Of a DNA stretch of 64,000 bases, positions 45,257 to 45,532 are shown one piece after another (position 1 is the stretch's first letter; every line of letters starts with the position of its first letter). Under the pieces are notes generated by a model. The model ran no database searches. It saw only the letters and a list, made by a program, of their open reading frames with translations, and was not told where the DNA came from. A program made the position numbers and the translations under genes. Location of the stretch: NCBI RefSeq assembly GCF_013122565.1, contig NZ_CP053258.1. The stretch is one strand, 5' to 3'. The DNA comes from Escherichia coli (lineage in GTDB: Bacteria; Pseudomonadota; Gammaproteobacteria; Enterobacterales; Enterobacteriaceae).

Positions 45257-45277
45257 ATCAGCCTCCTTTTGCTTAAT

Positions 45278-45508
45278 TAGATATATCTAATTTATATCTG
45301 ATATGAGCATTACTGCAAGTACAAAAATGATTTTTAAACGTGGACTCATCTCACACGTAGGCCGGATAAGGCGTTCACGCCGCATCCTGCAGCCTTGCTA
45401 TGGCGCTGAATGCCTTCACATACTTCAGATATATCAGTTCTACAAATCGCTTGCATTTATCATGATTAACAATCATTATCATTTGCGAAAATTATTTAGA
45501 TATATCTG
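45278..45508. promoter_or_regulatory. yqjI–yqjH divergent control region with two tagatatatct palindromes flanking a REP
   Basis: tagatatatcta (45278–45289, perfect palindrome) and tagatatatctg (45497–45508); REP gtaggccggataaggcgttcacgccgcatcc at about 45358–45392. Confidence 0.5.
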
Positions 45509-45532
45509 ATTACCATCACGAAGGCGATAACA

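Follow-up and report, generated by a model that had tools for sequence, protein, structure and literature searches.

The divergent nfeR–nfeF control region of Escherichia coli: probable YqjI operators, a Fur box and an Escherichia-specific REP insertion

The divergent yqjI (nfeR) and yqjH (nfeF) genes of Escherichia coli form a locus that ties nickel stress to iron acquisition. To judge from the titles of the relevant papers, yqjH is regulated by Fur (Wang et al., 2011; PMC3019823), and the YqjI binding sites located in the yqjH–yqjI intergenic region communicate with each other (Wang et al., 2014, J Bacteriol; PMC4135662). According to the summary given in PMC7981267, nfeF is repressed by NfeR and nickel relieves this repression, nfeF rises 85-fold in Klebsiella once nfeR is deleted, and a link between NfeR and the virulence of Klebsiella has been drawn. 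PMC9508795 describes nfeR as nickel-induced and counts nfeF among the members of the Fur regulon. The search of the open-access literature for text on footprints or on a REP element at this locus brought nothing useful. The 2014 study reportedly placed site I at yqjH and an extended site II footprint at yqjI, with cooperation over approximately 200 bp, and the internal deletions shortening the region are said to impair regulation. The essentials of the circuit are already present in the literature for the K-12 strain, and the locus analyzed here is the same one: the genes are the same, not a single base differs from K-12 in site II, the Fur box, or site I, and K-12 has this Y-type REP as well. 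The window (the whole stretch of analyzed DNA, 64 kb) differs from K-12 in its short allele of the intergenic region with no recognisable second REP, in a G-to-T change in the REP stem, and in an intact third GATATATC core, which reads GACATATC in K-12. The best identity between the window and 5,426 complete E. coli genomes was 97.8% for the region and 98.5% for 8 kb.

According to the list of open reading frames in the window, the gap between the two divergent ORFs spans exactly 45257–45532, so that the intergenic region comprises 276 bp, compared with 287 bp in K-12, where it corresponds to MG1655 coordinates 3,216,492–3,216,778. The yqjI gene (44633–45256, minus strand; start codon visible as CAT on the plus strand at 45254–45256) encodes a 207-aa repressor of the PadR family, extended at its N-terminus by a His/Cys-rich stretch of about 60 residues. 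The match to the Pfam PadR family (PF03551; 56.6 bits, E=2.5e-15, gathering cut-off 27) covers residues 67–136, after the His/Cys-rich N-terminus. The YqjI protein of the window is 99.5–100% identical to E. coli RefSeq NfeR, and its relatives found in the PDB belonged to the PadR family in every case, with the nearest at E of about 1e-8; this search returned no solved structure of YqjI. The yqjH gene (45533–46297, plus strand) encodes a 254-aa siderophore-interacting NADPH-dependent ferric reductase with the FAD_binding_9 (E=3.6e-37) and SIP (E=1.3e-25) Pfam domains. The RefSeq names, nfeR (DNA-binding transcriptional regulator NfeR) and nfeF (NADPH-dependent ferric chelate reductase), are carried by 5,421 of the 5,426 complete E. 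coli genomes and, along with the Pfam domains, agree with the preliminary description of this DNA, in which yqjI was named as a PadR-type gene and its neighbour as yqjH. The 68-aa ORF at 45303–45509 was dismissed, because the stretch that it reads takes in both the REP and the Fur box. On the other side of yqjH, between this gene and mug, a tRNA gene is located at 46354–46426 (minus strand; 73 bits to the Rfam tRNA model), annotated in K-12 as tRNA-Ile (ileX, CAU).

A perfect 12-nt palindrome upstream of yqjI and a near copy of it upstream of yqjH had been proposed earlier, and both were recovered, TAGATATATCTA at 45278–45289, 21 nt from the yqjI start, and TAGATATATCTG at 45497–45508, 24 nt ahead of the ATG at 45533. 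These are the only two matches to the 12-mer with 0–1 mismatch in the whole 64-kb window, and the expected number of matches with at most one mismatch is 0.007 per 276 bp under a first-order Markov model of intergenic composition. When up to two mismatches were allowed, four matches were found in the 64-kb window against 0.77 expected. The element beside yqjI (site II, 45275–45292) had in fact been understated in the preliminary description, since it is an 18-nt, and not a 12-nt, perfect palindrome AATTAGATATATCTAATT, which includes the 12-mer and the core GATATATC at 45280–45287 and is accompanied by half-sites offset by 11 bp. The direct-repeat half-site TATATCTG (45293–45300, plus strand) lies 11 bp, that is, one helical turn, from the palindrome's right half and overlaps the candidate −10 hexamer of yqjI. 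Of 36 loci, 35 carry the TATATC motif at both offsets, +2 and +13, and the half-site consensus from the cross-genus alignment is TATATCTnA. Two outer half-site-like CATATCAG sequences, which are weak and were recognised post hoc, lie over the yqjI start codon (45254–45261, plus strand) and at the partner position 45298–45305 (minus strand), and they form a perfect 11-nt inverted repeat (45251–45261/45298–45308). The element beside yqjH (site I, 45492–45512) is an imperfect palindrome TTATTTAGATATATCTGATTA, 20 nt in the inverted-repeat search, which includes the second 12-mer with its GATATATC core at 45499–45506. A third GATATATC core (45428–45435) is found within box 3 (TTCAGATATATCAG, 45424–45437), which lies upstream of the yqjH −35 hexamer and is a candidate for a third operator. 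The left arm of box 3 repeats the right arm of site I exactly, in inverted orientation, and the box reads CAGATATATCAG in the window and TAGACATATCAG in K-12. Nine of the 18 window matches to the half-site pattern YATATCWR, picked after the sites had been seen, fall within 45240–45540. The operator consensus is TTAGATATATCTAA.

The palindromes were also examined by a cross-genus comparison. The scan for YqjI proteins in one genome per species yielded 32 loci, both genes being present in 31 of them, and in all 31 of these yqjH was divergent from yqjI. The intergenic region was readable at 31 loci belonging to Escherichia, Citrobacter, Enterobacter, Lelliottia, Raoultella, and Superficieibacter, in which both palindrome cores and the Fur box are essentially invariant and the remainder diverges. 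In 10 representative sequences from 5 genera, with a mean column identity of just 62%, the invariant blocks were site II (all columns of 45277–45298 except two positions), two −35-like TTGCA motifs, the Fur box, site I, and the yqjH ribosome-binding site. The consensus of approximately 29 distinct sequences from six genera is TTnGATATATCTAAnnTATATCTnA beside yqjI and TTTAGATATATCnnATT beside yqjH. Among the smaller motifs, CTTG (yqjH −35-like) and CAATCATTATCATTT are invariant, and GCAAG (yqjI −35-like) is invariant or nearly so; only TA..TC of box 3 is kept outside Escherichia. The palindromes were suggested in the preliminary description to be operators of YqjI, and this reading is strongly supported by the phylogenetic footprinting and agrees with the adjacent PadR gene and the titles of the published papers. 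What is expected of a PadR operator was found here, namely a PadR-family neighbour gene, dyads above chance (their overlap with promoters depends on the promoter positions predicted below), and conservation of the dyads while the spacer diverges. Judged by this conservation, the mapped YqjI sites would be these same palindromes.

In the Enterobacter and Lelliottia loci (L017–L029), the intergenic region is compact (approximately 135–147 bp) and three 11-bp-spaced repeats (GATATATCTAAACTATATCTAAGATATATTCAGATG) abut the yqjH −35 hexamer. This arrangement suggests that the Escherichia third core formerly adjoined the site II array and that spacer insertion in other genera split the two. The IHF consensus is absent from the Escherichia spacer and was matched only in some Citrobacter and Raoultella spacers. 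An IHF-like motif (AATCAATTAATTA and its variants) occupies an equivalent position in the spacers of L009, L034, L008, and L014 (about 72–117 of the extracted regions), which may be a matter of chance in AT-rich DNA.

The positions of the promoters are predictions from the sequence. The candidate yqjI promoter (45291–45318, minus strand) consists of TTGCAG (45318–45313), a 16-nt spacer, and TATAAA (45296–45291), and falls below the threshold of a simple consensus scan. Its predicted start lies inside the site II palindrome, and its −10 hexamer lies under the adjacent half-site. The candidate yqjH promoter (45451–45479, plus strand) consists of TTGCAT (45451–45456), a 17-nt spacer, and CATTAT (45474–45479), which would place site I at about +11 to +22. 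The consensus scan indicated an alternative yqjH promoter, TTAACA-18-AATTAT (45466–45495), with a start that would fall inside site I. The hexamers match weakly, and this alternative alone passed the scan. An A-tract is present upstream of the yqjH −35 hexamer in Citrobacter and Raoultella. The Fur box (45462–45486), predicted from the consensus GATAATGATAATCATTATC, is composed of two overlapping 19-mers, with 14 of 19 matches at 45468–45486 (the joint best score in the 64-kb window) and 13 of 19 at 45462–45480. It contains CAATCATTATCATTT, is invariant in 5 genera, and represents a 19-bp consensus match over the candidate promoter of an iron-uptake gene. The yqjH ribosome-binding region CATCACGAAGG (45514–45524, plus strand) includes GAAGG at 45520–45524, and TCACGAAGG is nearly invariant across genera. 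The same region forms a perfect 11-nt inverted repeat with CCTTCGTGATG at 45237–45247, inside yqjI (codons His-His-Glu-Gly), so the 11-mer CAUCACGAAGG is common to both divergent mRNAs; by a rough estimate, about 0.02 such cases would be expected by chance in 400 bp.

A REP lying between the two palindromes had also been described, and a Y-type element was located there at 45357–45391 (plus strand, GTAGGCCGGATAAGGCGTTCACGCCGCATCCTGCA). It agrees with the consensus of Y-type copies at 34 of 35 positions, the GTAG head included, and its stem is weakened by the G-to-T change (CCTGC vs. CCGGC). The internal segment GCCGGATAAGGCGTTCACGCCGCATCCTGC (45361–45390) differs by 1 mismatch from a 30-mer present at four other places of the window, with 0 expected by chance. 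Together with these four, the window has 5 copies of the element, and the REP-containing queries were found at a median of 29–30 places per E. coli genome. The DNA hairpin of this REP (−7.7 kcal/mol, z=−0.95) is not more stable than that of shuffled sequence. The Rfam search for a small RNA in the spacer gave nothing above threshold, with a sub-threshold match to naRNA4, a REP-derived family, alone. The MG1655 annotation has no repeat feature in this gap, which neither confirms nor denies the REP. Its position in a divergent promoter, considered unusual at the outset, is indeed atypical, as each of the four remaining REP clusters in the window follows at least one gene. Those four lie in convergent or co-directional gene gaps, a transcribed 3′ or inter-cistronic context that this REP does not share. 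It sits between the −35 regions of the two divergent candidate promoters, and therefore neither mRNA should contain it. The spacer is apparently untranscribed, and for this reason the usual mRNA-stabilising or terminator roles of REP sequences cannot apply.

Elsewhere in the window, a REP cluster at 44557–44625 (a Z2-type and a partial Y REP) lies between the aer and yqjI 3′ ends, so that REPs bracket yqjI. A sub-threshold naRNA4 match is found at 44533–44592 (41.2 bits, gathering threshold 59.5). A REP/BIME cluster at 1911–2170 comprises three tandem REPs spaced by 78 bp and one inverted REP, and REP/BIME pairs occur at 5807–5907 and 30648–30830.

The REP is specific to one lineage in the loci compared. 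It was found in all 17 Escherichia alleles, E. albertii included, which were sampled across the identity ranking, vs. none of the 28 loci of other genera. No REP-free allele occurred among the 17 Escherichia sequences, which for E. coli is not proof of absence. The left flank together with the REP was aligned in 4,581 of 5,426 complete E. coli genomes, and the other genomes are consistent with the divergent left flank of the B2-type alleles, which do carry the REP. The site-to-site distance is 217–230 bp in Escherichia vs. 96–185 bp in the other genera, whose spacer contains 66–79% A+T.

Three spacer haplotypes can be recognised within Escherichia. The short class (276 bp), to which the window belongs, carries one REP with at most a decayed remnant of another and an intact third core. 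The two long classes (287 bp), of K-12 type and of B2 type, carry 11 additional bp and a recognisable inverted Z2-like REP; the third core is degenerate in the K-12 type and intact in the B2 type. The difference resides in the hypervariable REP-distal segment (45392–45423); the segment that takes its place in alleles of K-12 and B2 type is 11 bp longer and contains the degenerate inverted Z2-like REP. The second REP of the window allele is not significant (score 17–21 vs. a shuffle maximum of 24–30), whereas the Z2-like partner of the K-12 and ATCC 25922 alleles reaches 32–41 vs. a shuffle maximum of 25–27. In the 17 alleles, the mean pairwise difference was about 0.02 for site II, 0.04 for the promoter/Fur block, and 0.07 for the site I block, 0.09 for the REP, and 0.37 for the REP-distal segment. 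Several alleles have the GTAG head mutated to CCAG and stem pairs lost. The 12-mers of site II and of site I are each identical in 16 of 17 Escherichia alleles; 11 of the 17 keep the third GATATATC core unchanged, and the five K-12-type alleles (K-12, GN05476, O157 PA20, iso648, and P393F10) have GACATATC in its place. In the E. coli CUVET20-1573 allele (CUVET, L045), a single G-to-A change turns site I into the perfect palindrome TAGATATATCTA, and in the TO124 allele (L046), site II reads TAGATATATTTA and its core is broken.

The explanation which best accommodates these observations, and to which a probability of approximately 85% can be assigned, is that the intergenic region is the divergent control region of nfeR and nfeF, built of YqjI operators, a Fur box, and an Escherichia-specific REP insertion. 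The analysis itself supplied the families of the two genes, the positions and statistics of the motifs, their conservation, and the distribution of the REP; the roles attributed to the repressor, to nickel, and to Fur are taken from paper titles and a secondary summary. According to the proposed mechanism, the nickel-responsive YqjI/NfeR would bind the AT-rich dyad operators with the GATATATC core. Site II (45275–45300, possibly 45254–45305, depending on which half-sites we infer to be contacted) would cover the yqjI −10 hexamer and start, which would result in autorepression, and the binding of site I, at or just downstream of the inferred yqjH start, would block yqjH. At both promoters YqjI would thus either occlude RNA polymerase or block it, whichever reading of the yqjH promoter holds. 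The Fur box over the yqjH promoter would add iron control through occlusion of the promoter by Fur. Binding of nickel to the His/Cys-rich N-terminus would release YqjI, and both genes would be de-repressed. The REP would be an Escherichia-lineage insertion in an untranscribed spacer, which lengthens the distance between the sites and whose contribution, at most, would be that of a spacer or of flexible DNA helping sites I and II to cooperate. It is probably an old, lineage-specific, and decaying insertion with a weakly constrained sequence. Since it occurs only in Escherichia and the other genera do without it, the REP looks dispensable for the basic circuit, and its neutrality is presumed on the same comparative ground. 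The REP has nevertheless been kept since before the split of E. coli and E. albertii, and because no REP-free Escherichia allele was found, this retention could reflect some function.

Such a function forms the basis of the most serious rival explanation, in which the REP, or the REP pair, is functional architecture: the binding of gyrase or HU, or a cruciform, would shape the 220-bp spacer, the sites would cooperate by looping, and their phase would be kept by the 11-bp indel. Along with the retention of the REP in 17 of 17 Escherichia alleles, E. albertii included, this idea draws on the two length classes of E. coli, which differ by exactly 11 bp (site spacing of 219 and 230 bp, i.e., 20.9 and 21.9 turns), on the title of the 2014 paper, according to which the sites communicate, and on the A+T-rich spacer of the other genera (66–79%), in some cases with an IHF-like motif, which suggests that a bendable spacer is needed. 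However, the same gene pair is regulated in other genera without any REP, and the control by NfeR is strong in Klebsiella, according to the summary in PMC7981267. Moreover, a conserved helical phase had to be rejected as a general rule, as the genera span 96–185 bp (9.2, 15.8, 16.4–16.7, and 17.4–17.6 turns) with no phase in common, and Escherichia alleles of 217 bp also exist. Several alleles carry mutated stems and GTAG heads in the REP, and the hairpin of the window allele, with z=−0.95, is unremarkable. An architectural role of the REP appears unlikely. An extended version of it is likewise doubtful; there, the REP or the pair would be a module of DNA architecture peculiar to Escherichia that tunes the cooperation of YqjI sites about 220 bp apart, the alleles may give strains different nickel/iron set-points for yqjH, and the third core would be an operator overlooked because K-12 carries its degenerate version. 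The last rival, that the palindromes are TATA-rich promoter or DNA-melting (−10-like) elements duplicated by chance or by the symmetry of the region, can point to the TATAT-rich cores, the overlap of site II with the best yqjI −10 candidate, and the alternative yqjH start inside site I, but is highly improbable given dyad-symmetric conservation over 17–25 nt, far more than a hexamer, the same extended sequence at both genes in six genera, the location of site I downstream of the conserved TTGCAT-17-CATTAT promoter, and the YqjI binding sites in this region announced by the published titles.

The operator, Fur box, and REP insertion reading adds modestly to what has been described for K-12. It provides a cross-genus operator consensus, indicates that the REP is lineage-specific, decaying, and not ancestral, and offers a candidate third operator which is degenerate in K-12. 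The three natural spacer haplotypes of Escherichia, which differ in the 11-bp indel and in the intact or degenerate third core, constitute material on the DNA-level function of an untranscribed REP, and the CUVET and TO124 operator variants are natural mutants.

Summarizing, YqjI resembles the PadR protein of B. subtilis and LmrR of L. lactis in having a winged-helix PadR domain and a dimer-type inverted-repeat operator that overlaps the promoter, as well as in autoregulation and in a repression that a ligand relieves. Unlike these two regulators, it carries a His/Cys-rich metal-binding extension, and its ligand is nickel and not a phenolic acid or drug. PadR operators of the ATGT-N8-ACAT type are known, and the GATATATC core of YqjI is unrelated to them. 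The REP, in turn, shares with the REP/BIME elements of E. coli the 35-nt imperfect palindrome, the GTAG head, and the presence of many copies, and in the long alleles it is part of a Y plus inverted Z2-like pair; it differs from the usual elements of this family in lying between divergent promoters, in a spacer which is apparently untranscribed.
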